From: an uncultured Verrucomicrobiae bacterium
Lineage (GTDB): Bacteria; Verrucomicrobiota; Verrucomicrobiia; Limisphaerales; Palsa-1400
Reading direction: 5' to 3'
Assembly (NCBI GenBank): GCA_963702845.1
Contig: OY969763.1
Span: forward strand, 4,736,001-4,800,000
Length of the DNA: 64,000 nt
Positions 15,243-62,890 of this stretch are shown in pieces. Every line of letters begins with the position of its first letter. Position 1 is the stretch's first letter. The notes beneath the pieces were generated by a model. It did no database searches and was not told where the DNA came from. It saw only the letters and a program-made list of their open reading frames with translations. The translations under genes and the position numbers were made by a program.

Positions 15243-15983
15243 CTACCAATACAAATTAGTCCGACTAGGTGCCGGATAATCCGACGGATTATCCCCAAGC
15301 ACCGGTGGGAAAGCAAAATACGCAACATGCCCGTCGCCAAAGAGCATGTTGAAACGACGCTGGCCTTTGTCGTTGTGCCACCACGTGCTTGAGTCGGTGC
15401 CAACGTCGTTCGATGGGAGCTCCCAATCCCAATCACCTTGGATAATTTTATTGCCCGGACTAGTCGCAATTTCACTCGCTTTGATGGGCACGGCCCCATC
15501 GGCATAAGACGGGTCTGAGTCCGCAGTGACATGTTGAACCATCCAGTCGTCCACGTCGTGTTGCGGGCAGTAACTATTTCCATAAGACACGAAACAGTTA
15601 TCCACCTGGTACCTGGCTTCGCCCCTGTCCGAGGGACAGCGCCAGGCCGTCGCAGCGGGTACATATCGATTCAAAACCCGGTTGGCATAGTCGTTGGTAG
15701 TGCCGAAAGCAGCGGCGACACCCGAATCAAGAGTATCGGCGCCCCGTTGGCCTCCAGCCGAAGCCCAACCGCGAATGCGGGGGTACCAATCACTATTATC
15801 GCTGACGTACATCTGCCAGCCCAAGCCGATCTGATGCTGGTTGCTGGTGCACTGCGCCAGTTGGGCCTTCTTTTTGGCCCGGCTCAGCACTGGCAGCAGC
15901 AACGCGGCCAGGATCGCGATAATGGCGATGACCACCAGCAACTCTATCAGCGTGAATGCCCGCCTCATTTTCATGTCGTCCAC
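15243..15983 (-). CDS. Prepilin-type N-terminal cleavage/methylation protein with H-X9-DG C-terminal motif (DUF1559-like)
   Basis: [42 protein letters not shown]. Confidence 0.9.
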
Positions 15984-22413: not shown

Positions 22414-25400
22414 ATGAGTTCGCGAAAAAACCACAACATTTTATCAGGGCCACCGCCTAAACAAGGGCTTTACGATCCGCAATTTGAGCACGACGCATGC
22501 GGCGTAGGTTTCGTCGTTAACGTCGCTGGGGCAAAATCGCACAAGATCATTTCTGACGCGCTGACGATCCTGATGAATTTGGATCACCGCGGCGCGTGCG
22601 GATGCGAAGTGAACACTGGTGACGGCGCAGGCATTCTGATGCAGATGCCGCACAAGTTCCTCGAACAGGCGTGTGCGGAAGCGAAAATTAAATTACCGGC
22701 GGCCGGTCAATACGGCGCTGGAATGGTTTTTCTGCCGCGCAATGCGACGGCTCGTAAAACGTGCGAAAAGCAGTTTGAGCAAATTGTCGCTGAAGAAGGA
22801 CAGACATTTTTGGGTTGGCGCACGGTGCCTTGCGATAATTCTTCCCTGGGCAACACGGCGCAGGCTTCGGAGCCGTTTATTCGGCAGGTATTTATTGGTC
22901 GGTCGGCGGATTTAACCGATGACATGGCGTTTGAGCGGAAGCTTTACGTTATTCGCAAACGCGCGGAACGGGCACTTCGCTACGGCGAAATCAAAGGCGC
23001 GCACGTTTTTTACGTCTGCTCGCTGTCCTGCAAGACGATGGTTTATAAGGGCATGTTGCTGACGAAGCAGATGGACGCGTATTTCCCGGACTTGAAAAAT
23101 CCGGCGATGGAAAGCGCGCTGGCGCTGGTTCACTCACGGTTCAGCACGAACACGTTCCCAAGCTGGGATCGCGCGCATCCGTATCGTTACATCGCGCACA
23201 ACGGCGAAATCAACACGCTCCGCGGCAACATCAATTGGATGCACGCGCGCCAGGCGATGTTTGAATCGAAGTTGTTCGGGGACGATCTGAAGAAACTTTT
23301 GCCCATTATTAATACGGATGGGTCTGACTCGGGGATGTTCGATAACTGCCTGGAGTTGCTCGTGCTCTCGGGACGTTCATTGCCGCATGCGATGATGATG
23401 ATGATTCCGGAGCCGTGGTCGAATCACGAGACCATGAGCGACGAGAAGAAGGCATTCTATGAATATCATAGCTGCCTGATGGAGCCTTGGGATGGTCCGG
23501 CGGCGGTGGCGTTTACGGACGGCAAACTAATTGGCGCGTGCCTGGATCGTAATGGTCTGCGACCGTCGCGTTATTACGTGACCAAGGATGGCTTTGTCAT
23601 CATGGCGTCGGAAGTGGGAGTGCTCGATATCGCGCCGGAAAACATTTTGCAGAAAGGGCGCTTGCAGCCCGGTCGCATGTTCCTTGTCGATACGGAGGAG
23701 GGCCGCATCGTTGCCGACGAAGAGATCAAACAGGAAATCGCGACGGAACATCCGTATCGCCAATGGCTCGATAAATATATGCTCGAGCTGGCGCGCGTTC
23801 CGGAAGCAGAACATCTCGCTGAGCCTTCGCACGAAACGGTGATGCAACGGCAGCAGGCGTTCGGTTATACGTTCGAAGATTTGCGCATCATCATGGCGCC
23901 GATGGCGCGCGATGGCGTGGAAGCGATTGGCTCGATGGGCACGGACACGCCACTGGCGGTTTTGTCCGATAAACCGCAGCTGCTCTATAACTATTTCAAG
24001 CAATTGTTCGCGCAGGTCACGAATCCGCCGATCGATTGTATTCGCGAAGAATTGGTCACCTCGGCTGAAACGACTATCGGCACAGAAGGCAATTTGCTCG
24101 AACCGAAGCCTGAGAGTTGCCATTTGATCGAGCTGAAGACGCCGATTCTGACGAACGAAGAATTTGCGAAGCTCAAGCACATTAATCAGCCTGGATTTAA
24201 ATCCAAGACGCTTTCAATTTTGTTCAAGGCGTCGGATGGCGAAGAGGGTTTGGCGAGCGCGATGCAGAATTTGTATGAACAGGCCAGTCGCGCGATTGAG
24301 CAAGGCGTTAATATTCTGATTTTGTCGGACCGCGGAGTTAGTAAGGATCTTGCGCCGATTCCGGCGTTGCTGGCGGTTTCGGGCATGCATCATCATTTGA
24401 TTCGCGAAGGCACGCGCACACGCGTGGGCCTGGTGCTCGAATCGGGCGAACCGCGGGAAGTGCATCATTTCTCGTTGTTGATCGGTTACGGCGCAGGAGC
24501 GATCAATCCGTATGTGGCGTTCGAGACGCTTGACGACATGATTCGTCAGGGCTTGCTCGTGAAAGTCGACCACAAGACGGCGTGCAAGAATTTTGTTAAG
24601 GCGGCGGTCAAAGGCGTGGTGAAGGTCATTTCGAAGATGGGCATCTCCACGATCCAGAGCTATCGCGGCGCGCAGATTTTCGAAGCGATTGGTCTGCATC
24701 CGCACGTTGTTGAAAAATATTTTACGGGCACGGCTTCGCGCGTTGGTGGCATTGGCCTGGATGTGATCGCGACTGAAGCGCAAAAGCGACATCAACACGC
24801 GTTCCCGGATCGCCAGGTGAACGGCCACACGTTGGATGTGGGCGGTCAATATCAATGGCGTCAGGACGGCGAGCATCACCTGTTCAATCCGCAGACGATT
24901 CACAAGCTACAGAAGGCTTGCCGCACGGGTGATTACAAAACTTTCAAGGAATACTCCGAGTTGGTTAACGACCAGTCGAAGAAACACGCGACGTTGCGTG
25001 GTTTGTTGGAGATTAAGTTTCCGAAAAAACCGATTTCGGTTTATGAAGTTGAATCGGTTGAGTCAATTTTGACGCGCTTCAAATCGGGCGCGATGTCTTA
25101 CGGTTCCATCAGCAAGGAAGCGCACGAAGCGCTGGCCATCGCGATGAACCGCATCGGCGGCAAGAGCAACACGGGCGAAGGTGGCGAAGATCCCGCGCGT
25201 TACAAACTTGAGGCGAATGGGGATTCGAAGAACAGTGCGATTAAGCAGGTTGCCTCTGGCCGTTTCGGCGTAACGAGCGAATACCTCGTGATGGCGCAGG
25301 AACTGCAAATCAAGATGGCGCAGGGCGCAAAGCCGGGTGAAGGCGGGCAGCTTCCAGGAGCGAAAGTTTTCCCATGGATTGCGAAAGTTCGCTATTCCAC

Positions 25401-27033
25401 TCCGGGTGTCGGTCTCATTTCACCGCCGCCGCACCATGACATTTACTCGATCGAAGATTTGGCTGAGTTGATCCACGACCTGAAAAACGCGAACACGAAA
25501 GCGCGTATCAGCGTGAAGCTCGTAGCTGAAGTTGGTGTGGGCACGATTGCGGCGGGCGTCGCGAAGGCGCACGCGGACGTAGTCCTGATCAGCGGCTACG
25601 ACGGCGGCACGGGTGCTTCGCCGATCACCAGCATTAAGCACGCGGGTATCCCGTGGGAGCTCGGTCTTGCCGAAGCGCACCAGACGCTGGTGCTGAATAA
25701 TCTGCGCAGCCGAATCGCGGTTGAAACGGATGGTCAGTTGAAGACTGGTCGTGACGTGATCGTTGCGGCGTTGCTCGGTGCTGAAGAATTTGGTTTTGCG
25801 ACCGCGCCACTCGTGACGCTGGGTTGCATTATGATGCGCGTTTGCCACTTGAACACGTGCCCGGTTGGCGTTGCCACTCAAGACGCGGAATTGCGCAAGC
25901 GGTTTACCGGGGATCCGGCGCACACGGTTAATTTCATGCGCATGATTGCGCAGGAAGTTCGTGAGCTGATGGCGCAACTTGGCGCGCGCAACGTCACCGA
26001 CCTCGTCGGCCGCACTGACTTGCTCGAACCGCGCAAAGCTATCGACCATTGGAAAGCGCGCGGGCTGGATTTCTCGAACATTTTGTATCAGCCGAAAGTG
26101 GCGAAGGACGTCGGTCGCTTCAAACAGATGGAACAGGACCACGGGCTGACCGAAGCGCTCGATAACACGCAGCTTTTAAAAATCTGCGAACCGGCGCTGG
26201 CGAAGGGCCACAAAGTCGAAGCGAAAATTCAAATCCGCAACGTCAATCGCGTTGTCGGGACGATCCTCGGTAGCGAACTGACTCGTCGCCATGGCGCGAA
26301 AGGGTTGCCGGACGATACGATCAAAATTCATTTCACCGGTTCGGCCGGTCAGAGCTTTGGCGCTTTCATGCCGCGTGGTATCACGTGGACGCTGGAAGGC
26401 GACGCGAACGATTACGTCGGCAAAGGTCTTTCTGGTGGCAAGATCATCGTTTATCCGCCGAAGGGTTCGACCTTCGCTGCGGAAGACAACATGATCACCG
26501 GCAACGTGGCGTTTTACGGCGCGACGTCGGGCGAAGCCTACGTCAGCGGTATGGCCGGCGAACGGTTCTGTGTTCGTAACAGCGGATTGCATGCTGTTGT
26601 TGAAGCGGTGGGCGATCATGGTTGTGAATATATGACCGGCGGCCGCGTGGTTGTTCTCGGCGCGACTGGCCGTAACTTTGCCGCGGGTATGTCCGGCGGC
26701 GTGGCCTACGTGCTGGATGAAGTCGGCGATTTCAAGAGCCGTTGCAATCAGCAGATGGTCGGCCTGGAAAAATTTGAAGGCGCTGAAGAACTCGAACAGA
26801 TCCGCCAGATGATCGTGCGGCATGCCGAGTTGACTCACAGCAAACGTGCCGCGAAAATTCTCGCCGCCTGGAGCGAGATATCCGGCAAGTTTGTGAAAGT
26901 TATTCCGAAGGACTACAAACGAATGCTCGCCTGCATGAAAAAGGCAGAGCAATCGGGCTTGAGCGGCGAAGAAGCTGTGATGGCCGCCTTTGAAGAAAAC
27001 GCCCGCGACGTGTCCCGTGTTGGGGGTAGCTAA
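22414..27033 (+). CDS. gltB: Glutamate synthase large subunit
   Basis: HDACGVGF N-terminal Cys, [44 protein letters not shown]-terminal domain. Confidence 0.98.
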
Positions 27034-28564: not shown

Positions 28565-29332
28565 ATGAGAACCCAACGCTCCGGCGCAAACATTTCATTT
28601 GTTGCCTTCACATTAATTGAATTGCTGGTGGTTATCGCCATCATCGCCATTCTGGCGAGCATGCTTTTGCCGGCGCTCGCGAAAGCAAAAGACAAATCCC
28701 GCCGCATTGTTTGCATAGGGAACCTGAAGCAACTCGGGCTCGGGAGCGTCATGTACGCGGGCGATTGGAATGGGCTCTATACCGGCAACGTCAGCTATTA
28801 CGACGACAATGATAACTGGATGTATGGCGATTACGTGAAGAACACGAAATCGTTCGTTTGCCCGAGCACGCAAAATACGGTTCGAAATTTGAAGGTGAAA
28901 AATGCGCTGGGGCTGACGGAGTATGTCGATCTGCAATACTTTGCCACGAATCAGAATTCGCCCTTCGGCTACACGTATGAAAATTTTGCGTGGTGGGCCG
29001 GATTTACCGACAGCCCAAAAGCCGGACCAGCGGGTTCGAGCCAGGAAAAAAAGAGTGAACGCAAAGTTGTTGCCCGTGCGCATGCCGGGAACAACCTAAA
29101 CCTTCAAGGAATTATTCCCGGCCCGACGCGCACGTTTCTGATCGTGCATGCGGACAATTATTACAACAAAACGAATCCCGGAGCGATTTACGATTGGCCG
29201 GACAAGACCGATGGGCATGGCGATCTCGGTTTTCAAGCGACATACGCCGATGGGCACGCACAACTAATCCTGTTGCGCGATTGGCTTATAGCACGCGAGC
29301 TGTCCTGCGACACGTGGCGCACGAGCCCGTAA
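28565..29332 (+). CDS. Prepilin-type N-terminal cleavage/methylation protein (H-X9-DG type)
   Basis: [40 protein letters not shown]. Confidence 0.9.
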
Positions 29333-45283: not shown

Positions 45284-45313
45284 TTGACACTGCAGAACGT
45301 GAATCTTTACAGT
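45284..45313 (+). promoter_or_regulatory. Putative sigma-70 promoter
   Basis: TTGACA-18 bp-TACAGT, 35 bp upstream of ATG 45348. Confidence 0.5.
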
Positions 45314-45347
45314 GCGCGCTCATTTCACAAATAACCACAGTATAGAT

Positions 45348-46124
45348 ATGAAAAATAAATGGACCAAGAAGCTTGCAGCTTTCACTTTGATTGAGCTGCT
45401 GGTTGTCATCGCGATTATTGCCATTCTGGCGAGCATGCTTTTGCCCGCTTTGGCGCGCGCGAAACAAAAAGCGCAACGTATTCAATGCGTTAACAACCAG
45501 AAACAACACGGAACCGGCTACCGCATTTGGGCTGGTGACAATCAAGACCGTTATCCGCAGCAATCCTCGAAGGCCAACGGCGGCTGGTCGGACATTGCGG
45601 CTGCCGGTTCTTGCGGTCCTTACGGTTGGACGAACTGGGTGATTATGCAAAACGAATTGGGCCAATCCCCCAAGATCCTGAATTGCCCGTCAGACGACCG
45701 CACCCCAGCGACCGATTTCAAATACCCCGGTGGCGCGCCTGCCGGCACGTTCGGCAATCTGAATGTGTCGTATTTCATTGGCATGGGCGCGAATGAAAAC
45801 TATCCGTTATCCATCCTCGGCGGCGACCGAAACCTCGGTTCCAGCTCGACTGACGCGAACTACGGTTATTCTCCTGTTGCTCCTTCTGTCGCCGGTAGTG
45901 ATCAATATCAAACTCCCAGTGTGCTCGCCACGAACCAAAGGACTGCGGCGTGGTCGATGAAGTTGCACTCCGCTGGTAACCAGGTTGGTGCCGGCAACAT
46001 CCTGATGGGTGACGGTTCGGTGCAGCAATGCTCCTCGGCTCGTTTCGTCAGCGACTACTTGACCAATGCGTTTGACACCGGCAACGGCGCGGTTGCTCCG
46101 TACATCCGTGTTGTGTTCCCTTGA
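45348..46124 (+). CDS. Prepilin-type N-terminal cleavage/methylation protein (H-X9-DG-like)
   Basis: [27 protein letters not shown]...[10 protein letters not shown]. Confidence 0.9.
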
Positions 46125-53903: not shown

Positions 53904-56850
53904 ATGCAACTAAGGACAATTCTTTGCGCACTGGCGGTGTGCATTTCATTCACGGTCTTTGCAGACAACGTCACACTGATCGACCTGAAACCATTCGTCG
54001 GCCGCTCCCCTTTCGACATCATCAAAGCGAATTGGTTGTTACCGCGCGGCAATCACGTATTCGACGGCGTGCCATGGAAAATTGACGGTATGATTTTACT
54101 CTACGGGACCAACCCGGTGCAGAAAAGCAAACCAGCGCGCACAAACATCAACGACATCCCAGTCGGTCGAAAGTTCGAAGTGCTACATTTGCTCGCCGCC
54201 GCCCAGCAGACATCGACTGACGGGACTGTTATTGCTAAAGTCCACCTCAACTACGCCGACGGCACCGAGACGACCCTCGACATCCGCTACGGAAATCAGG
54301 TGCTCAATTACATCGGCCCGTGGCACAGAGCCGAGAAGCCCCTGAAAGACAAAACGGTTCACCAGGCATGGCACGCGCAATTCGGCCCATCAGCAAATCA
54401 CGACGAGTATTTGCGATTGTTCCATGTGCCGCTGATCAATCCACACCCCGACAAAGACGTTCGCGCCATTTCGTTGCAATCGACAAAAAAAGCCGCGGCG
54501 CTGATCGTTGCAGCAATCAGCGTCGGTTCATCGAATCAACAATCACTACCCAACGAAGACCTGGGCAAAGCGCCCTTTCCGGATTTGCGTCCGCGTTCTG
54601 GTGAATTAGCTACCGGGGAAGGTTTTGTTTATACGCCAGATGGAAAACCAATTAGCGGCGCGCTAGCGAAAGTTGTTGCGGCGCGGAATTACAGCAGCGG
54701 AACACTAACGGAAAATGAAAACGACGCAGAAACGACAACCGACAGCAATGGACATTTTACACTGCACAATTTGCCAGACGACAATGCGTATCGGGTGTTA
54801 ATCGCAGCGGCCGGTTTTCAACCTTACGTGTACCACGGGATCGATGCCAAATCAGATCCGGTTCAAGTGCGACTGGAGAACGCTACCAACCACATCGGAA
54901 CGTTTGCCGCGCGCGCGCGCATCGTTGACCTCAACGGAAAACCCATTCCTCATGCCATGGTAGAACGTGACGGCGTTGGCTATGGCACCGGCAGCACGAG
55001 TTGGGGAGAACAAGACGTTCCTGAGTACGTCCGTGGCAGACACGAATGGGGAATTCGTTTTATCGCGCGACAAGGCGTTCAACCGTGTGCAGGTGAAAAT
55101 CCGCGTTCCAGGGCTTGCGCCGTTGCACGATTGGATTTCAGTAACGAACAAGGCCACAGTGCTGGAGATGGGCGCAGGCGCGACCCTTCGTGGACGAGTC
55201 TTTGATTTCGATGGCAAACCTCTCGGCAACGTTAAGCTCGGAATCACCGGGGTCGATCGAAACTCGGAACTCTTCGCCGGCTCTTATAACACCATGGCCG
55301 ATGCAGACGGCACCTTTGAATTCAAGCACGTCATGCCCCGAATCTCATGGAATTTATACGGCACCGTCACTTCGTTCAAAAAATACGGCGCTCTGCCCGC
55401 GCGGAAAATTATGTCCGGCGCGCACGGCACCGTGAGCGAATTGGGCAACTTGCAGGTCGTCACAGCGTTGCGTCTGGCTGGTCAGGTCAAAACCAGGAGC
55501 GGCGGATCACTCCCAAAAAATCTTACGCTACGTCTCGGCATCGCCAGCGAAGCCGACGGCGAAACTGCCACAGTCGACAAAAATGGGAATTTCGATTTCC
55601 CCGGTCTGTATGCCGCCTCCCTTGACATTTATCTCAACAACGACGGTTGGAAATTGTCTGGAATCAATCGCAGTTTGTCTTTTTGGAACCCCTGGGAGCT
55701 CGTCGGAAAGCTGGAGAAAACTAAAACCGATATGGTGATCAAGATCGAGAAAGGCAGCCGCGATTACGAATATGATAACGACAACGGGAACATGCCCGAC
55801 ACGGATAATCCGTCGAACAGGGAGATTGGTGGTGTGGAAAATCTCGAAGCTAGCGCGATCATCCTCGCTGGTTCCGTGATTGACGAAAAAACAGGCACGC
55901 CGCTCGCCAATTGCAAGATTGTGCCCGGATACAAACCATCCGCTGCAGCCTGGGGGATGGCAGGCACGAGCGCCCCGGAAAAGAACGTCTTCCAAAAGCT
56001 GTTGGAGCCGCTGAAAAAAAAGCAGGATAACTGGTGGGAAAAACCGTATTGGATGCCAGCACGCGCCGAGCACCTCACAAACGGAACCTTTTCGATCCCT
56101 TTCGTTCCGTTGCAAAGCAAGCCCATGTTGCGAGTCGAGGCCGATGGATACGAACCGTTCATTTCAGAACCGGCCCCAACTAGCACGAATATAACCATCC
56201 GGATGAGTCGTGGCCATGGTCCGACCGGAACCGTACTATTGCCCGACGGCAAGCCGGCCACGAAGGCGCAAGTGCTCTATGCCGCCGGATCCGAACAATT
56301 TGGATTGTCCGGTCGGAAATTAGATTTATACGGTTCTCACACGAACGCGTTGGTCCGAACAGCGGCTGATGGAACGTTCACATTCATGGCCCGCGCCAAC
56401 GGCAACCGCTTGTATTTTTCACACCCAACAGGATACGCAGAACAACCTGTGCGCGAAAAAAACCAAAAAGTCGAAGTGCAATTAAAACCTTGGGCGGCAC
56501 TGTCCGGCACGCTCATACAGAGCAACGGTCTGGCCGCCACCGGTGTCCCGTTAGGCCTCACTTTCTACAATGGGACCGACTACGATGGCTCACAACCACT
56601 GCTCCATTACAACGACGGCGAGTGCACCACCGATAGCAAAGGCCACTTCTTTTTCACGAATGTTCCGCCTCGTCGCGTGCAGATTGAACGCATCGTCCGA
56701 AGTGGACGAGGCGGAGGATGGAGTTCGGTGCTGCAAACGTGGACGGAAGTTGAACCCGGCGTGACGAATGACTTGGGCAAAATTACCTACGACCAACCGC
56801 CGGCCAAACCGGTCTTGGAGCAGTTAAAGGAGAAGATGGGGCTGCAGTAA
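53904..56850 (+). CDS. Large secreted protein with carboxypeptidase-regulatory-like (beta-sandwich) repeats, frameshifted near 55030
   Basis: Signal peptide; repeated G.V...DGKP...A.V / T.D.NG.F motifs. ORFs 53904..55205 and 54967..56850 join on removing one base (..VPEYV/VADTNGEF). Confidence 0.7.
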
Positions 56851-56892
56851 ATTCAAAACAACGACACGTAACACCTGCGAACCGAACGCGTT

Positions 56893-59800
56893 TTATTTTA
56901 ACTTCTGCCCAACTTCTTCCACCCAAACCGTAGGCGGCAACGCATACGGGCGGAACGTCTCGAGTTGCCCCTCTTGCTCGTTATAGAACAACGCGCGGTG
57001 CAAGCCGAGGCTGCCCGCTTTCGGATTATCAATTAGGCTCGCCGAATCACTGGCGCTCATCTGGAACAGCACGCGCATTTCAAATTCCGTCAGGGCTTTG
57101 CGGCTGAGGAACCGGTTCACGTTGTTGTAAGTGTCGCAAGTGACGATCACGTGAATGCCCACGCTCGGACCCTCGTTGATTAATTGATTGAGCAGCGCCG
57201 ACGGTGCCGCAGCTGTTTCCGCGCTGCTCGAAAAGGAAAAATCTTCTTCGTAACGCAATTTGCCGAACCGCTGAACGTCGCGGATGAAGATAAACATCGA
57301 AGGCGCATCGGCGGGATTTGGAGACTCCGCGCGACTACGCATTTCAGCGACAACCTTCGCGAACGTTTCACCAATGTCGTGCGGCGTCAATCGAGTCACC
57401 TCATGCGGAATCGCCGCAACCACGCGATTGACCAGGTCCGCCTGATTCGAATCCGGCGGCGAACTGTCGAGAACCATAAACCGCACCGCATCTTTCGGAA
57501 ACTGCGCCGCCAATGAAATCATTCCAGTCGTGACGATGCTCAGCACCGCCTCTTCGCGTTGGCCCACGATCAATAAATTGTTGCCGCTTTGCCGGCGGAA
57601 CACCGCTTCCGTCGGGCCTTTGATCGAGTTTGGCGCACCCAGCCACATGTGGGCGAGGTCCGGTTTCTTAGTGGGTGGCGATTGCAGCAGTTGAGCAAAC
57701 GCGACATTGTCGCGGACGTCCGCCGGGGCGTCGCCTTCGTAAACAAGCGGCGCAGGAAACCGTTTACCGCTTTGTGCCGCTTGCTTGTCGCACGCGTTCC
57801 AGATAAGTGTCGCGTTCCTCATCCGAAAGCCACACCGCCTGAAACGGACTGTTCGCTTCGAGCGCGCCGGCGCTGTCGTTATAAATACCTTCGCCGGGTC
57901 GCGTCAGCATGCGCGGCGCGGGATTGCTATCATCCATGATCAGGTAGGCATCGGCTTCGTTACATTGCAGCGCGATGCGAATGACCATCTGCCCAAGCGT
58001 CGTGCGCGCGACCGTGTAAGCGCCGCCCAACGTCTGCGAACCAAGGATGACGTGAATACCGAACGCGCGACCCTGCCGGACAATGCGGTCCAACAACACG
58101 GAAGCACTTTGGAAAATCTTATCGTCCTCAGTGAAAAATTCCTGGAATTCGTCGATCAGCAGCAAGGTCCGCGGCATCGGTTGTCCGGTTGCTTTACGAT
58201 AACCCGGAAGGTCCTGAACGTTATGTTCGCGGAACAATTCACCACGCCGCTTCAATTCCGCGTCGAGTCGCTGGAGCACGCTCAAACCAAATTCGCGATC
58301 GCTTTCAATCGCGACAACACGCGCGTGCGGCAATTGGTGCGTGGCGTAACTCTTAAATTCCACACCCTTCTTGAAATCGATCAAATAAAATTCAACCTGC
58401 TCCGGACTGCACCACAAAGCCAGGTTCGTGATCATCACGTGGAACAGCGTCGATTTGCCCGAACCGGTTTTACCCGCGATCAGCGCATGTTGCCGCGTGC
58501 CTTTGCCAATCGCCAGATACTGGAACTTCGTTGCGCCGGTGCGACCAATCGGCACTCGCAATTCGTTGCCCGTGTCGAGCGACCACAGTTCTCCGTCATG
58601 CGGCGCGACGTGCTCGAATGGAACTTCAACGCGGTTCGAATCACGACTGCTTCGCCCGACTTTGTGAATCAATTCAGTCGCCAGTTCCGCAGTCGGCGGC
58701 TCGTCCAATGTAACATTCACACCCGGCAACGATTCTCCTTCGATCAGGTAATTCGTCAGCGTTTCGCGCGGCACAGGTTTGCTGACGATATGCGCCCCGC
58801 TCTTGCGCAAATCCTCCGCCACCGCCGGGTCCAGACGCTGCCGCGTGTCCCAATGAATCAACGTATACACCCCACAACGCGCTCCGCTCGTCGCGATGCT
58901 CATCAGCCGTCGAATCGCGACCTCGCTGAAGTTGTGTGGAAAATCGGCCACGACCAAGAAATGATATTTCTCAGCGATGTTGCCCGCCTGCTCGTTATAT
59001 TCGACGATCGTGCTGTATTCATTGCGCAAATACATCTGGATGACTTTTTCCATGTGCGCGTTGAGTTCGCCCAGCTTTTGATCAATTTGCTCCGCTTGCG
59101 TCCATATCCGGCTGTTGATGAGATGCTCCTCGTGATCGGCGAGGTGCATGAAGCTGGCAAAATTTTGTCCAAGTTCAACAGGATCGATAATAGTGAAACT
59201 CAAACGTCCCGGCGGCGCCGCCGCGAGCAGGCGCAATACGATGTTGTTCAATGAACCAATCATCTGCTCGCGCCCGACGTCGCCTTCAAATAAAATCGAG
59301 CCTTGTTCCGGATACTGTCAGCAATAGCGGGACCTGAAGTTGCGACGGCCCGGGCAACTGCAACTTGCGAGTCCTTCCTGCGGGTCGCGACCAGCTTATC
59401 GACATCGACGTCCATCGAACCAAACCGCGCCACATGCTCGAATTTCGCCGGGGCAGTCCAACCCTCCACCAAATCACGACTCCACGGCGGAAACATTTTC
59501 TGAGACAACGCCGCGCTCTCCTTCAACTCGCGATAAATCGGCTCCAGCCGATTGTTCCATTCCGCGGTAATCGCGCGCATTTCATTTTCAAACGCCGCGT
59601 TATGTTTTGATTCCTGCTGCTGATAACGGTCCGTCGCCTCTTTTTTGCGCGATTCAATTTCAGCGTTGATGCGGCCCAACTCTTCATTCCGTTCGCGGGC
59701 AATCCGTTCCAGCCGCGCCTTATGCATCGCCTCGTGCCGCGCCACAACGCGCTTCCCTTTCTCTTCCACCAGAGGCTCGGAATCTATCTTATATTGCTGC

Positions 59801-60780
59801 GCTCCGTTCAGCGTCTCGCTCCACTCCTGTTGAATCCGTTCCGTTGTCGCCTGAAAATCCGATTCAATCTGCGCCAATGTCCGAACGCGCCGCGTGTCGG
59901 CCTTCTCCAAACAAATTGCGTGAAGATTACGCGCTTTGCCGAGCGCATCAGAAATTTCCTTCGCCAGCGCTCGCCCTTGCCGCGCCCCAATCTGGTGAAA
60001 TGTCCCGGCCAATACAACCAGCGCACCCGCAATTGCCGCCTGCGACCCCAGTCGTCACGGTCTGAACGCTGAGCTGGTGCAAAATCGGAACCATCGCAAA
60101 AAGCCCAGCCGCAATAATCACCCACGCGACAAAATATTTGAAAACTTTCGTGATGAGCAACCGATTGAAACGCGCAATGTTTTCATCTGCCTTCGAACGC
60201 AACTTTTGCAACTCAGTTAGTAAATCGTGTTCGTTCCCCTCGCGCTGCAAACGGCGTCGCCTGCGCCTTCGTCAACATGCGGGAAAATCTCCGGATACCC
60301 GCTGAACGAATCCTTCGCCGCAGCTTCAGACCGAAATAATGCCTCGTTCTCTTCAGCCAAATGCCGTTTGAAATCTTCACACGCGCGCTCTGTCGCGGCG
60401 ATGTCCGTTTCGCGTTTGCGTTGCGACTGCAGCGTCTCGCGTTGCAGTTTATATTTACGCGACCCCTCAATGTGTTCGATGCGTTCGATCGCCTGTTTCT
60501 TCGCGACCTTATGCGCCTTCGCAATAACGCCGCGCCGCTTCTCGTGCCGAGACTGTTCGTTTACGCCCAGCTTCTTGAACGCAACCTCTGCTTCATCCCT
60601 GCGGGCTGCCAACGTCAACGCCAACTCCTCCAAAGCCGCATCGCGATGCTTCTGATCACGCGTCAGCTTCACCTTCAATTCCTGGCCGGCCTTCTCTTCG
60701 CGCGCGGAAAGATCCGCGATGGCGCTGCGAAGTGCCTGCACCAGGTCGCGAACTTTGGAAACTCCGAGCGCGTTACTCAC
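56893..60780 (-). CDS. FtsK/SpoIIIE-family (EccC/EssC-like) membrane ATPase, ~1290 aa, split by six apparent +1 frameshifts
   Basis: Consecutive ORF fragments give a coiled coil, TM hairpin, coiled coil, a degenerate FtsK-like domain, an intact domain (HALIAGKTGSGKST, IDFKKGVEF, LLLIDEFQ, RQGRAFGIHVILGSQ) and a degenerate C-terminal domain (NEGPSVGIHVIV). Confidence 0.85.
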
Positions 60781-60985
60781 AATCTTTTTTTATTTTCGCG
60801 ATTATCTTGTCGAGTTGATCGATCACACCCGACGCGGCATTCACACTCGCGTTCAATTCTTCCATATAAAGCCGCTCGAACTCGATCGCTTTGTTATCGC
60901 GCCAATACTGCTGCGTTTCACGCCAACGATTGAACAGTTCCTGCGTCACCGAGGTCAACCGGGTTTTGTTCGCCGCAAGACTCAT
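60773..60985 (-). CDS. Small WXG100-like helical protein (W-R-D)
   Basis: 70 aa, QYWRDNKAIEF; translationally coupled on both sides. Confidence 0.7.
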   Translation of the reverse strand: MSLAANKTRLTSVTQELFNRWRETQQYWRDNKAIEFERLYMEELNASVNAASGVIDQLDKIIAKIKKDCE

Positions 60986-61548
60986 GAAGCCTCCTTCTCG
61001 TCTGTCGTTCCGGCTTCAGCAGGCGTCTCGGTCGGCTCGGCAACCGTCGTCGCAGCTCGACCAGCACTTGGCACCGTCACATTCGCGTAAGCTTCCAATG
61101 CCCGAATCGATTGCGCCAGATGCGCATGCGCCTTCGGCAATCCACTTGAAAGGAACGATTGCAAACGCTCGAGCTGCTTGGCCAGCGGCGACACTCGACT
61201 CTCAAAATCGCTGATCCATTTCTTCACGTGCGCCAGTTTCATTTCTGCGTCGGCCAGGTCCCGCTGCGCCTTCGTCACCGCCGTCCGCTCCCCCGACGTC
61301 GATTCGCGCAAGCGCGACATCTCCGCGCTGAACACCGCCTGTTTGGCCTCCTCCAACTTCAACGCGCATCGGCGCACCTGCTTTTCCCAATACATCCGCC
61401 GATCGCTCTCCAGCCACACCCGCAGGCGCACGACCTCCGAATTAATTTCATCCAACGTCGGCCGCGCCTTGTTCAAGTACAACACCAACGCCGCGCGAAA
61501 TGCGTCCAGCGCCTCGATTGACGTAATGTTTGCGCCTTGTTGGGCCAT
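60982..61548 (-). CDS. Helical coiled-coil protein, putative WXG100 partner/substrate
   Basis: 188 aa, all-helical, located between the two WXG100-like genes. Confidence 0.7.
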   Translation of the reverse strand: MAQQGANITSIEALDAFRAALVLYLNKARPTLDEINSEVVRLRVWLESDRRMYWEKQVRRCALKLEEAKQAVFSAEMSRLRESTSGERTAVTKAQRDLADAEMKLAHVKKWISDFESRVSPLAKQLERLQSFLSSGLPKAHAHLAQSIRALEAYANVTVPSAGRAATTVAEPTETPAEAGTTDEKEAS

Positions 61549-61549
61549 C

Positions 61550-61822
61550 TCAGTGCTGCTTCAAATATTCCTCAATCCGCTGCGCCTTGCGCAGCAGATA
61601 AGGCCCGTGCTGGTTCGAAAGCTCCATGAAATTGTTCAGCGTTTTTATCGTTTGCTTGAACTCCTCCGCGAATTTCACGTGCTCCTGATCCTGCCACGTG
61701 TCGCTTAACTGCGCAAAGCGCGCCTGAAGTGCCGACATTCGCGTTTGCAGGTCGGCATTGAATCGCTTGAGCTCTTCGGCAAATCGCCGCACTTGTTCGG
61801 GATCCATGATCGCCTGGGCCAT
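61550..61822 (-). CDS. WXG100-family type VII secretion target (W-Q-D variant)
   Basis: 90 aa: MAQAIMDPEQVRRFAEELKRF...LSDTWQDQEHVKF...LRKAQRIEEYL, a helix-turn-helix with central Trp. Confidence 0.85.
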   Translation of the reverse strand: MAQAIMDPEQVRRFAEELKRFNADLQTRMSALQARFAQLSDTWQDQEHVKFAEEFKQTIKTLNNFMELSNQHGPYLLRKAQRIEEYLKQH

Positions 61823-62033
61823 AAAAACTTCTTTCTCTTTTTCGTTTTGTAGTTCCGGCTGGGCCGGCGGTTTCGACATGCTCCCGCGCGCCAACGCCGC
61901 CCATTGGATATCAGCTACTAACCTCTACCTCACTAACTTTAGTGTACCAGCCTTTCCACTACACGACGAACAATTTTGTTGCGATGCCGCGCTCGGGTTT
62001 CGAAAACGTTCCCACGCGCTACCTTGGCAACGT

Positions 62034-62309
62034 ATGAAGAAATTACTATTGATTGTGGGTGCAGCGGCTTTAGCGGCTTGCACGAATCAAGGGAATAATT
62101 GCGGAACAACAATGAACGAACCGGCAGGCGCCGCCATCGGCACTAGCTCAATGTCCATGTCGGCTCGCGATATGAATCAACAACCTTATCCGGGCGCGAG
62201 CGGTCTGAATCAACAACGCGGCACCGGCTCCGCGAGCAACAGCGGCTTGCAGGGAGGCAGTATCAGCCCCATCGGCATCTCCACTGGCCCCGGCAGCCTA
62301 AATCCGTAA
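62034..62309 (+). CDS. Small low-complexity lipoprotein
   Basis: MKKLLLIVGAAALAAC lipobox; Gly/Ser/Asn-rich. Confidence 0.7.
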   Translation: MKKLLLIVGAAALAACTNQGNNCGTTMNEPAGAAIGTSSMSMSARDMNQQPYPGASGLNQQRGTGSASNSGLQGGSISPIGISTGPGSLNP

Positions 62310-62512
62310 TCTTCAGTTAACCACCTACCGTCATGCGAGTTGGCTTCGCATAAAGGGGGCAATTCGCTTTTTTGCGAATCGCCCGTCAGCAGCATTGACC
62401 TTTCAATCAATGAGTTGCATGTGTTTCCACAAATTCCAAGGTTGGCGAGGGATTTGCTATAAATGCATGTATCAGTCCTGCAAAAGAGCGTCTTTTGCAT
62501 CTCTGGTTAAAC

Positions 62513-62890
62513 GTGAATCTACTATCAAAAAAGACTACTCGGTTCGCTGGCTTTACGCTGGTGGAAATCATGATTGTCGTCGCCATCATCGGATTGCTCG
62601 CCGCCATCGCTGTCCCCGGTTTCTTGGGCGCGCGCGCTCGTGCCCAGGAGAGTACCTGTCTTGACCACCTGCGCCTGATCGACGGTGCCAAACAGCAATG
62701 GGCACTCGAAAACCATGCTGATTCCACTATGACCCCGACTGGCCCGCAACTTCGGCCTTATCTTGGCCGTGCGTCTGGTGTTTTGCCTATTTGCCCTGCC
62801 GATCCGGCTCAAACGTTTGCGACGAGCTATAACATCAACGACATGTCGACTACTCCGACTTGCCAGGTTCTGCCCACGCACTTGCCGTAA
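62513..62890 (+). CDS. Short pilin-like prepilin protein
   Basis: GFTLVEIMIVVAIIGLLAAIAVP, C...LR.IDGAKQQWALE and C-terminal Cys pair; start approximate. Confidence 0.85.
   Translation: MNLLSKKTTRFAGFTLVEIMIVVAIIGLLAAIAVPGFLGARARAQESTCLDHLRLIDGAKQQWALENHADSTMTPTGPQLRPYLGRASGVLPICPADPAQTFATSYNINDMSTTPTCQVLPTHLP

Follow-up and report, generated by a model that had tools for sequence, protein, structure and literature searches.

Within a 64,000-nt stretch of the genome of an uncultured Verrucomicrobiae bacterium (assembly GCA_963702845.1, contig OY969763.1, positions 4,736,001 to 4,800,000; hereafter, the window), our analyses addressed a four-gene cassette on the minus strand, spanning positions 56893-61822, that places small WXG100-type proteins beside a large membrane ATPase of the FtsK family. 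An initial annotation, made from the DNA letters alone, had read this cassette as a minimal type VII secretion system (T7SS)-like operon. Three of the genes, which we call wxgA, p188, and wxgB, are intact, and the ATPase gene is the fourth.

61550-61822, minus strand: wxgA, 90 amino acids (aa), with W43-Q-D45 (…DTWQDQEH…) at the predicted turn
60982-61548, minus strand: p188, 188 aa, a predicted carrier or substrate
60773-60985, minus strand: wxgB, 70 aa, with Y-W-R-D (…QYWRDNK…) and a C-terminal D-C-E
56893-60780, minus strand: ATPase gene, EccC/EssC-like member of the FtsK family, about 1295 codons across six +1 frame breaks

The tight coupling of the four minus-strand genes that had been described agrees with our own reading of the sequence. 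Specifically, wxgA and p188 are separated by a 1-bp gap (TGA-G-ATG), p188 and wxgB share an ATGA overlap, and wxgB overlaps the ATPase gene, which starts with GTG at 60780, by 8 bp (GTGAGTAA). Likewise, the 90-aa TWQD, 188-aa, and 70-aa YWRD open reading frames (ORFs) are all present where they had been placed. No signal-like hydrophobic N-terminal stretch was seen on reading the sequences of the three small proteins. A scan of positions 56600-62300 returned no sigma-70-like sites, relative to 2.3 expected, and no terminator 3' of the ATPase gene, although such a scan is uninformative for a Verrucomicrobium.

Small proteins of the cassette

By profile comparison, wxgA is a WXG100-family member with W-x-D at the turn. 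It scored 41.3 bits against the Pfam WXG100 model PF06013 (gathering threshold 27.3), in line with the membership first proposed for it, and was the sole PF06013 match in the source genome; against NCBIfam TIGR03930 it scored 29.8 bits, below the cut-off of 44.85. When a profile of 75 orthologues was compared with solved structures, the best relative was Helicobacter pylori HP0062 (3FX7 and 2GTS; E 2e-12, residues 1-89), which ranked ahead of EsxB and EsxA, and the W-R-D of HP0062 fell in register with the W-Q-D of wxgA. Trp43 and Asp45 were invariant in 75 of 75 aligned sequences, and the C-terminus (…LLRKAQRIEEYL…) was nearly invariant, with L76, Y86, and L87 unchanged throughout. W43-Q-D45 stands where a Trp-x-Gly turn would define the family, and the Pfam model accepts the protein anyway. 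Relatives of wxgA fall into 5146 protein clusters and carry database names such as “YukE” (JGI) and [quoted passage not shown] (NCBI).

The second small protein, wxgB, matched no family in Pfam or NCBIfam, and a profile search of the PDB with it returned nothing below E 0.01. Its W21, W28, D30, and C69 were invariant in 132 sequences, and 1686 representative clusters were recovered at E<=1e-3, almost every one of the 150 listed having a length of 68-72 aa. A hidden Markov model of wxgB scored 21.9 and 19.5 bits on the PF06013-positive proteins of two divergent loci (L113 and L114, described below), covering most of the hairpin. Judged from such profiles, wxgB is a probable shortened WXG100-like hairpin, and the substitution of Asp for the canonical Gly that had been pointed out in both small paralogues is indeed present in each (W-Q-D in wxgA and W-R-D in wxgB). 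One protein of the representative library (P0363, 1149 aa) carries wxgB as residues 1-67 and runs on into an ATPase that is 49% identical to the orthologue of one relative (G007); it is either a natural wxgB-ATPase fusion or a read-through of the 8-bp overlap.

Between these two genes, p188 likewise matched no family in Pfam or NCBIfam, and a PDB profile search gave nothing below E 0.01. Its AlphaFold2 (AF2) model, built from a 75-sequence alignment (predicted local distance difference test [pLDDT] of 87.4), folds two helices (8-78 and 81-157) into one long hairpin, consistent with the helical character attributed to it at the outset, and its tail is disordered and rich in Pro, Ala, Thr, and Glu. 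A Foldseek search with this model recovered generic coiled coils, none of them at E<=1e-3. As for the hairpin fold expected of the small proteins, wxgA aligns end-to-end with the solved hairpin HP0062, and p188 takes that form in its model; for wxgB, the likeness is a weak one between profiles.

The ATPase and its frame breaks

The fourth gene had been described as encoding an FtsK-type ATPase of ~1290 aa with a transmembrane (TM) hairpin. The family and the hairpin both hold, whereas the gene, as assembled, is not one open frame: it falls into five ORF pieces (60217-60780, 59948-60250, 59260-60012, 57764-59263, and 56893-57822) joined across six +1 breaks. The full-length orthologues that we saw were all single ORFs, of about 1270-1380 aa, but one (L040, split 1085+246), and 79 of them, chosen at 1270-1390 aa, were aligned. 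From its N-terminus onward, the protein comprises a helical cytoplasmic part (~200 aa), a TM hairpin, a stalk that is again helical (~200 aa), and three tandem FtsK-like domains, here termed D0, D1, and D2.

59990-60145, minus strand: TM hairpin of the ATPase, with TM1 in the 59948-60250 piece and TM2 across the break near 60035
58544-59263, minus strand: D0, degenerate FtsK-like domain without a Walker A motif, the first alpha/beta domain of the orthologue model
57767-58543, minus strand: D1, active ATPase domain, with Walker A GKTGSGKS at 58451-58474
56893-57760, minus strand: D2, C-terminal degenerate FtsK-like domain, with LLIVGQREEA in place of the P-loop, the third domain of the model
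~60293, 60240-60260, 60035, 59369, 59316, and 57786, minus strand: frame breaks, one surplus base each, placed by DNA alignments to same-genus orthologues

With a simple hydropathy threshold, two hydrophobic segments were detected at approximately aa 205-290 in 7 of 10 aligned orthologues, and one only in the remaining three (L021, L023, and L024); in the window ATPase, the hydrophobic stretches are visible in a three-frame reading, across a frame break. Exactly one Walker A motif (GxxGxGK[ST]; GKTGSGKS) occurs per protein in 10 of 10 orthologues. No GxxGxGK[ST] motif was found in D0, and the third domain is likewise without a P-loop. By contrast, EccC and EssC reportedly, from work of Rosenberg et al. 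in 2015, have three nucleotide-binding domains bearing P-loops.

Both sequence comparison and structural modeling group the ATPase with EccC/EssC rather than with FtsK, which answers the question, raised with the initial annotation, of whether it might belong among the DNA translocases. D1 scored 116.5 bits against FtsK_SpoIIIE (PF01580), as that annotation had anticipated, and the 499-aa piece that holds it scored 115.8 bits against EccCa (TIGR03924), 97.2 against EssC, and 91.9 against EccCb, versus 28.8 against FtsK (NF007615). D2 reached 16.5 bits against PF01580 and 22.7 bits against EccCb (TIGR03925), both below cut-off. Searched by sequence against the PDB, the ATPase matched EccC (4NH0, E 3.7e-38), EccC5 (2e-29), and YukB (3e-22) ahead of FtsK (~2e-9). 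Further, an AF2 model of the C-terminal 839 aa of the G007 orthologue (pLDDT 86.6; predicted template modeling score 0.79) comprises three tandem alpha/beta domains, and its top Foldseek match was the three-domain cytoplasmic region of Thermomonospora curvata EccC (4NH0; E 1.4e-28 over 910 columns), followed by EccC D2-D3 and EssC D2-D3, and then by FtsK motors (2e-11) and TcpA (~1e-9).

A three-frame reading against same-genus orthologues gave the coding path 0>1>2>0>1>2>0, with six surplus bases, all of them +1, the best located being at 57786, between D1 and D2. Because six +1 shifts sum to 0 modulo 3, the GTG start at 60780 shares its frame with the stop at 56893, as in the ~1290 codons originally counted. 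To place these breaks against the background of the source assembly (G000; a single 6.03-Mb contig, completeness 89.8%), tblastn was run with 896 ORFs (>=300 aa) taken from the loci of relatives, and 140 G000 genes had a relative at >=45% identity and >=60% coverage. Matches in more than one frame were obtained for 20 of these 140 genes (18 of 138 without the two ATPase entries), and 29 of the 33 breaks in those 18 genes were +1, as were all six in the ATPase. Essential genes outside the window are among those broken:

G000:C1, 3742551-3745569: rpoC
G000:C1, 70907-74547: dnaE, with at least five frame switches
G000:C1, 2044835-2046395: ctaD, cytochrome oxidase subunit I
G000:C1, 4028408-4030819: mutS

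For rpoC, we saw no intact duplicate, and for dnaE there was a 29%-identical paralogue only. Because essential genes cannot all be pseudogenes, this pattern points to a systematic insertion-type assembly error; the six breaks in the ATPase are most likely errors of this type, not gene decay, and the ATPase is very probably intact in the organism. This class of error splits gene calls genome-wide, such that gene calls here need frame-aware handling.

That the cassette is instead a decaying pseudogene cluster, in which the six breaks are real mutations, seems improbable. Such decay would accommodate six breaks within 3.9 kb while long neighbors are intact (e.g., the 1539-aa ORF at 22414-27033), the position of the breaks outside homopolymers, and a patchy family (12 of 40 relatives and 13 of 400 phylum genomes, as detailed below), the argument being that the cassette is dispensable because its family is patchy. 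However, the single-copy essential genes rpoC and dnaE are broken too, the prevailing sign of breaks across the genome is that of all six in the ATPase, as a systematic insertion error would produce, and no in-frame nonsense substitutions appear once the frames are tracked. The D1 protein is also 91-94% identical to same-genus orthologues, and the three small genes are intact. Four soil or rhizosphere DNA runs contained words of the source stretch (only 5-9% of those sampled). The surplus base is missing from the contigs that cross 57786 and 59316; these contigs represent strains at ~92% identity, and the comparison does not settle error versus mutation. Some short run-derived pieces are ~99% identical, away from the break sites.

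Elsewhere in the window, the plus-strand ORFs at 53904-55205 and 54967-56850 (433 and 627 aa) overlap by 239 nt in different frames. We considered this pair as a further frameshift and did not count it, as the 687-aa ORF of the sole relative found matches the 627-aa part alone; the overlap is probably an over-extended start rather than a frame break. Four ORFs of the window begin with a methylation motif of the prepilin type, and genes of this class abound in bacteria of the Planctomycetota-Verrucomicrobiota-Chlamydiota group; the first of the four ORFs lies just upstream of the cassette on the opposite strand.

62495-62890, plus strand: prepilin-type ORF
15243-15983, minus strand: prepilin-type ORF
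28565-29332, plus strand: prepilin-type ORF
45312-46124, plus strand: prepilin-type ORF

Distribution, synteny, and a variable slot

An ATPase orthologue was present in 12 of 40 relatives and in 13 of 400 evenly sampled genomes of the phylum (E<=1e-60), and the module is accessory and patchy. Where it occurs, its organization is largely fixed. All 10 fetched relatives of the order keep the four-gene order, and a pattern scan of species-representative genomes confirmed at least 570 stretches of at least 600. Synteny was analyzed in the best 80 of these >=570 stretches (66-76% identity over D1), nearly all of which are titled Verrucomicrobiota (Pedosphaera, Limisphaerales, Chthoniobacterales, Verrucomicrobiales, Akkermansiaceae, and Spartobacteria), in agreement with the Verrucomicrobiota-like host that had been suggested for the cassette. 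Among the 69 of these 80 loci in which the ATPase N-terminus is complete and the upstream flank spans 1300 nt or more (the other 11 lie near a contig end), 64 show the order wxgA-p188-wxgB-ATPase; the exceptions are two loci without wxgA, one with wxgB only, and two with unrelated upstream genes. The linkage of the small genes with the ATPase, proposed as a check on the original reading, is thus kept in 10 of 10 relatives and 64 of 69 loci. Clustering of all flanking ORFs revealed no further conserved flanking gene, with the next family occurring in 8 of 80 loci.

Eight contigs (L036, L079, L066, L096, L030, L082, L100, and L054) carry ATPases 68-76% identical to Verrucomicrobiota ones under titles naming Klebsiella, Bifidobacterium, Haliangiales, Bacteroidetes, Acidoferrum, Aquilonibacter, Acidiferrales, or Omnitrophota. 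The full cassette lies upstream in each, except in L054, which starts at the contig edge, and L082, which has no small genes upstream. These titles probably reflect mislabelled or misbinned contigs of metagenome-assembled genomes, not a spread to those phyla. The ESM Atlas offered p188-like and wxgB-like clusters in Planctomycetota as well; this lead is unconfirmed, as the named matches are all Verrucomicrobiota and the clusters come without taxa.

Two kinds of variant depart from the standard layout. A relative of the same family (G012, locus L024) has a rearranged version that comprises the ATPase, two W-x-D WXG100 genes, a gene for a 396-aa protein, and a wxgB-like 71-aa gene. A more divergent variant (L113:4713-11462 and L114:5272-11375, in G200 and G300) has an ATPase of ~1060 aa with 33-38% identity over D1, one W-Q-D WXG100 gene, a gene for a ~440-aa helical protein, two small genes, and upstream genes for von Willebrand factor A (vWA) proteins, two in L113 (one of which was checked against Pfam) and one in L114.

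The position held by p188 proved variable in its C-terminal part. In three database proteins, a p188-like N-terminus is fused to an Imm33-like domain (PF24719), which scored 33.5-37.8 bits against a gathering threshold of 27, the hhalign probability of the p188-like N-terminus in P0241 being 99.2%, and such fusions occupy the p188 slot in five metagenome loci.

L115, 1855-2997: Imm33-like fusion in the p188 slot
L116, 4332-5474: Imm33-like fusion in the p188 slot
L117, 8001-9107: Imm33-like fusion in the p188 slot
L118, 2335-3519: Imm33-like fusion in the p188 slot
L119, 3-905: Imm33-like fusion in the p188 slot

The fusion lies between wxgA and wxgB in four of these loci (L115-L118), and in L119 it is truncated by the contig start, which leaves no sequence in which a wxgA could be seen. 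The ATPase follows in four of the five, the L118 contig ending before the ATPase position. In G012, the N-terminus of the 396-aa protein (L024:6467-7657, minus strand) matches the p188 profile (E 3e-7), while its C-terminus scored 25.3 bits against PI3_PI4_kinase, just below the gathering threshold of 27.1. By analogy, a p188 slot with variable C-terminal domains looks as a cargo carrier would, and a conserved helical N-terminal module with swappable C-termini beside the ATPase recalls the pattern of T7SS cargo, such as the LXG proteins, for which a helical N-terminal carrier and a variable C-terminus are described in the available text of PMC9600955.

A predicted exporter, its rivals, and known systems

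We consider it reasonably probable that this is a self-contained four-gene cassette of Verrucomicrobiota in which WXG100-type hairpins and an EccC/EssC-like membrane ATPase make up a predicted stripped-down type VII-like exporter across the inner membrane. The reading is supported at the level of families and synteny, from which we infer export. In the mechanism that we propose, the ATPase would be an inner-membrane protein whose two ends face the cytoplasm, oligomerizing as EccC/EssC do, and its single active domain (D1) would power translocation. The P-loop-less C-terminal domain may dock the conserved C-terminus of wxgA (…LLRKAQRIEEYL…), by analogy with the last domain of EccC, and wxgA would travel either as a homodimer, like HP0062, or paired with wxgB. 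The long hairpin of p188 would act as a co-exported carrier whose C-terminal part is variable cargo, and the products may end in the periplasm.

The absence of other membrane partners, asserted initially within the window for EccB, EccD, MycP, EssA, EssB, and EsaA, was upheld genome-wide for part of that set. EccB (PF05108), EssB/YukC (PF10140), the YukD/EccD N-domain (PF08817), and EssA (PF10661) had no matches in the source genome, in searches for which Corynebacterium glutamicum and/or Bacillus subtilis gave matches as controls; EsaA, EccE, and MycP were not searched.

Several observations weigh against the exporter reading. Asp replaces the defining Gly of W-x-G in every sequence, and hhalign gave wxgB only a weak probability (12-18%) of matching wxgA, with W-x-D in register. 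The ATPase has one Walker A motif, versus the three nucleotide-binding domains of EccC/EssC, and its 499-aa piece missed the T7SS equivalog cut-offs widely (115.8 of 509 bits for TIGR03924, 91.9 of 347 for TIGR03925, and 97.2 of 778 for TIGR03928); we term it EccC-like rather than an EccC because of these shortfalls and because its first and third domains are without a P-loop. The cassette gives no hint of a conduit across the outer membrane of its diderm host. It would also be odd for a secreted protein to carry an Imm33-like domain, the name of which comes from an immunity family. Further, no RNA run was found to contain the stretch, and the frame breaks could still be real, given that the break-crossing contigs come only from ~92%-identical relatives.

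It is rather unlikely that there is no exporter and that the hairpins serve as cytoplasmic adaptors, regulators, or chaperones of an FtsK-like membrane ATPase with some other job (e.g., envelope or developmental signaling). The function of HP0062 is unsettled, a chaperone/adaptor role having been proposed (PMC3397514, in its available part), and this would fit such a role, as would the one active P-loop, the Imm33-like domain fused to the p188 module, and the finding of no outer-membrane component or other membrane partner. However, three domains of the ATPase line up in order with those of the secretion ATPase EccC, and both proteins are anchored by a TM hairpin; T7SS variants are defined, according to the available text of PMC11217815, by the WXG100 fold and its conserved linkage to an ATPase of this sort, and the conserved helical N-terminal module with its variable C-termini resembles LXG-type substrates (PMC9600955, likewise in part).

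We regard as less probable still a conflict system, i.e., an anti-phage defense or toxin/immunity module with an FtsK/HerA-type ATPase and no dedicated secretion system. Its patchy distribution and variable genomic context, the Imm33-like and kinase-like domains in the p188 slot, and the vWA proteins adjoining the divergent variant are all of a kind with such modules, and in PADLOC, D1 scored 88.7 bits on the FtsK-like domain of SspH and 67.9 bits on mad8. Those matches, however, extend no further than a generic P-loop domain and are outscored by the EccC models, and no small protein falls in a defense family, bar one chance-level 14-bit match. Nor does a conflict role exclude secretion, given that T7SSb delivers antibacterial toxins (PMC10765036, available portion). 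That the ATPase is an FtsK/TraB/TcpA-like DNA translocase or conjugative coupling protein is very improbable: a PF01580 FtsK_SpoIIIE domain is present, and FtsK and TcpA are among the weaker matches, whereas EccC/EssC matches are better by 10-25 orders of magnitude, the source genome has a separate FtsK-like gene of ~890 aa (G000:C1 near 2672104), and no mobile-element genes are conserved next to the cassette.

What is known of T7SSs comes from Actinomycetota and Bacillota, whose systems need at least five membrane components. A bolder and more doubtful proposal is that the cassette represents a type VII variant of lipopolysaccharide (LPS)-diderms, widespread in Verrucomicrobiota (and in Planctomycetota by the language-model lead only), whose entire machinery at the inner membrane would be one EccC-like protein, having a single active ATPase domain and no further dedicated partner in the membrane. 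Its substrates would be W-x-D hairpins and a long-hairpin carrier with swappable cargo (a disordered tail, an Imm33-like domain, or a PI3/4-kinase-like domain). Were this so, it would be the smallest natural T7SS. The WXG100/FtsK pair in Verrucomicrobiota is part of a fixed, portable four-gene module for which no other conserved partner was found, and this module offers a compact, clonable test case for hairpin translocation by an EccC-like ATPase alone, for the role of the W-x-D turn, and for how, or whether, the LPS outer membrane is crossed.

Our literature searches, which returned unrelated papers or work on Gram-positives, turned up no earlier account of this four-gene module, of how widely Verrucomicrobiota carry it, of an ATPase of this type with one P-loop, or of a modular slot for p188. 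The novelty attached to the initial annotation was, however, overstated, as the W-R-D of HP0062 and its clustering with an FtsK/SpoIIIE gene had been described by 2009-2012 (PMC3397514, as far as its available text goes). Further, a 2023 review, in its available portion, notes limited WXG100 sequences beside FtsK/SpoIIIE in some Gram-negatives as intriguing and functionally unconfirmed (PMC10765036).

Among characterized systems, T7SSb (EssC/EsxA; YukB/YukE) shares with the cassette a membrane-bound ATPase of the FtsK family in which two TM helices follow a cytoplasmic N-terminal domain, a monocistronic, sagEsxA-like WXG100 gene, and the LXG-like logic of helical N-terminal carriers with variable C-terminal domains, and EssC and YukB rank near the top when the ATPase is matched by sequence and by fold. 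It differs in that the cassette genome is without matches to EssA, EssB/YukC, and YukD/EsaB (EsaA was not searched), and in that the cassette has one Walker A motif versus three nucleotide-binding domains, a helical ATPase N-terminus versus FHA, W-x-D versus W-x-G, and a diderm host. T7SSa/ESX (EccC, EsxA/EsxB) provides the best family-model and fold match in EccC, and it resembles the cassette in having two small hairpin genes per operon (predicted ones in the cassette) and a second membrane in the envelope, with an outer route that is likewise unsettled. Here, however, the small genes are parted by the 188-aa gene rather than forming a bicistronic pair, and no EccB or EccD-type ubiquitin-like domain was found in the cassette genome (EccE and MycP were not searched). 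The T7SSc-j variants (Garrett et al. 2024, PMC11217815) also combine an EssC/EccC-like ATPase, WXG100-like proteins, and lineage-specific partners, whereas that survey covers Gram-positives only, with Verrucomicrobiota and Planctomycetota absent from its available text. HP0062 belongs to another phylum and is nonetheless the best solved relative of wxgA, its W-R-D aligned to W-Q-D. It is a small helical hairpin dimer and, like wxgA, belongs to a diderm host and has no signal peptide, and its gene is clustered with an FtsK/SpoIIIE-domain gene, as wxgA is with the ATPase (PMC3397514, in part).

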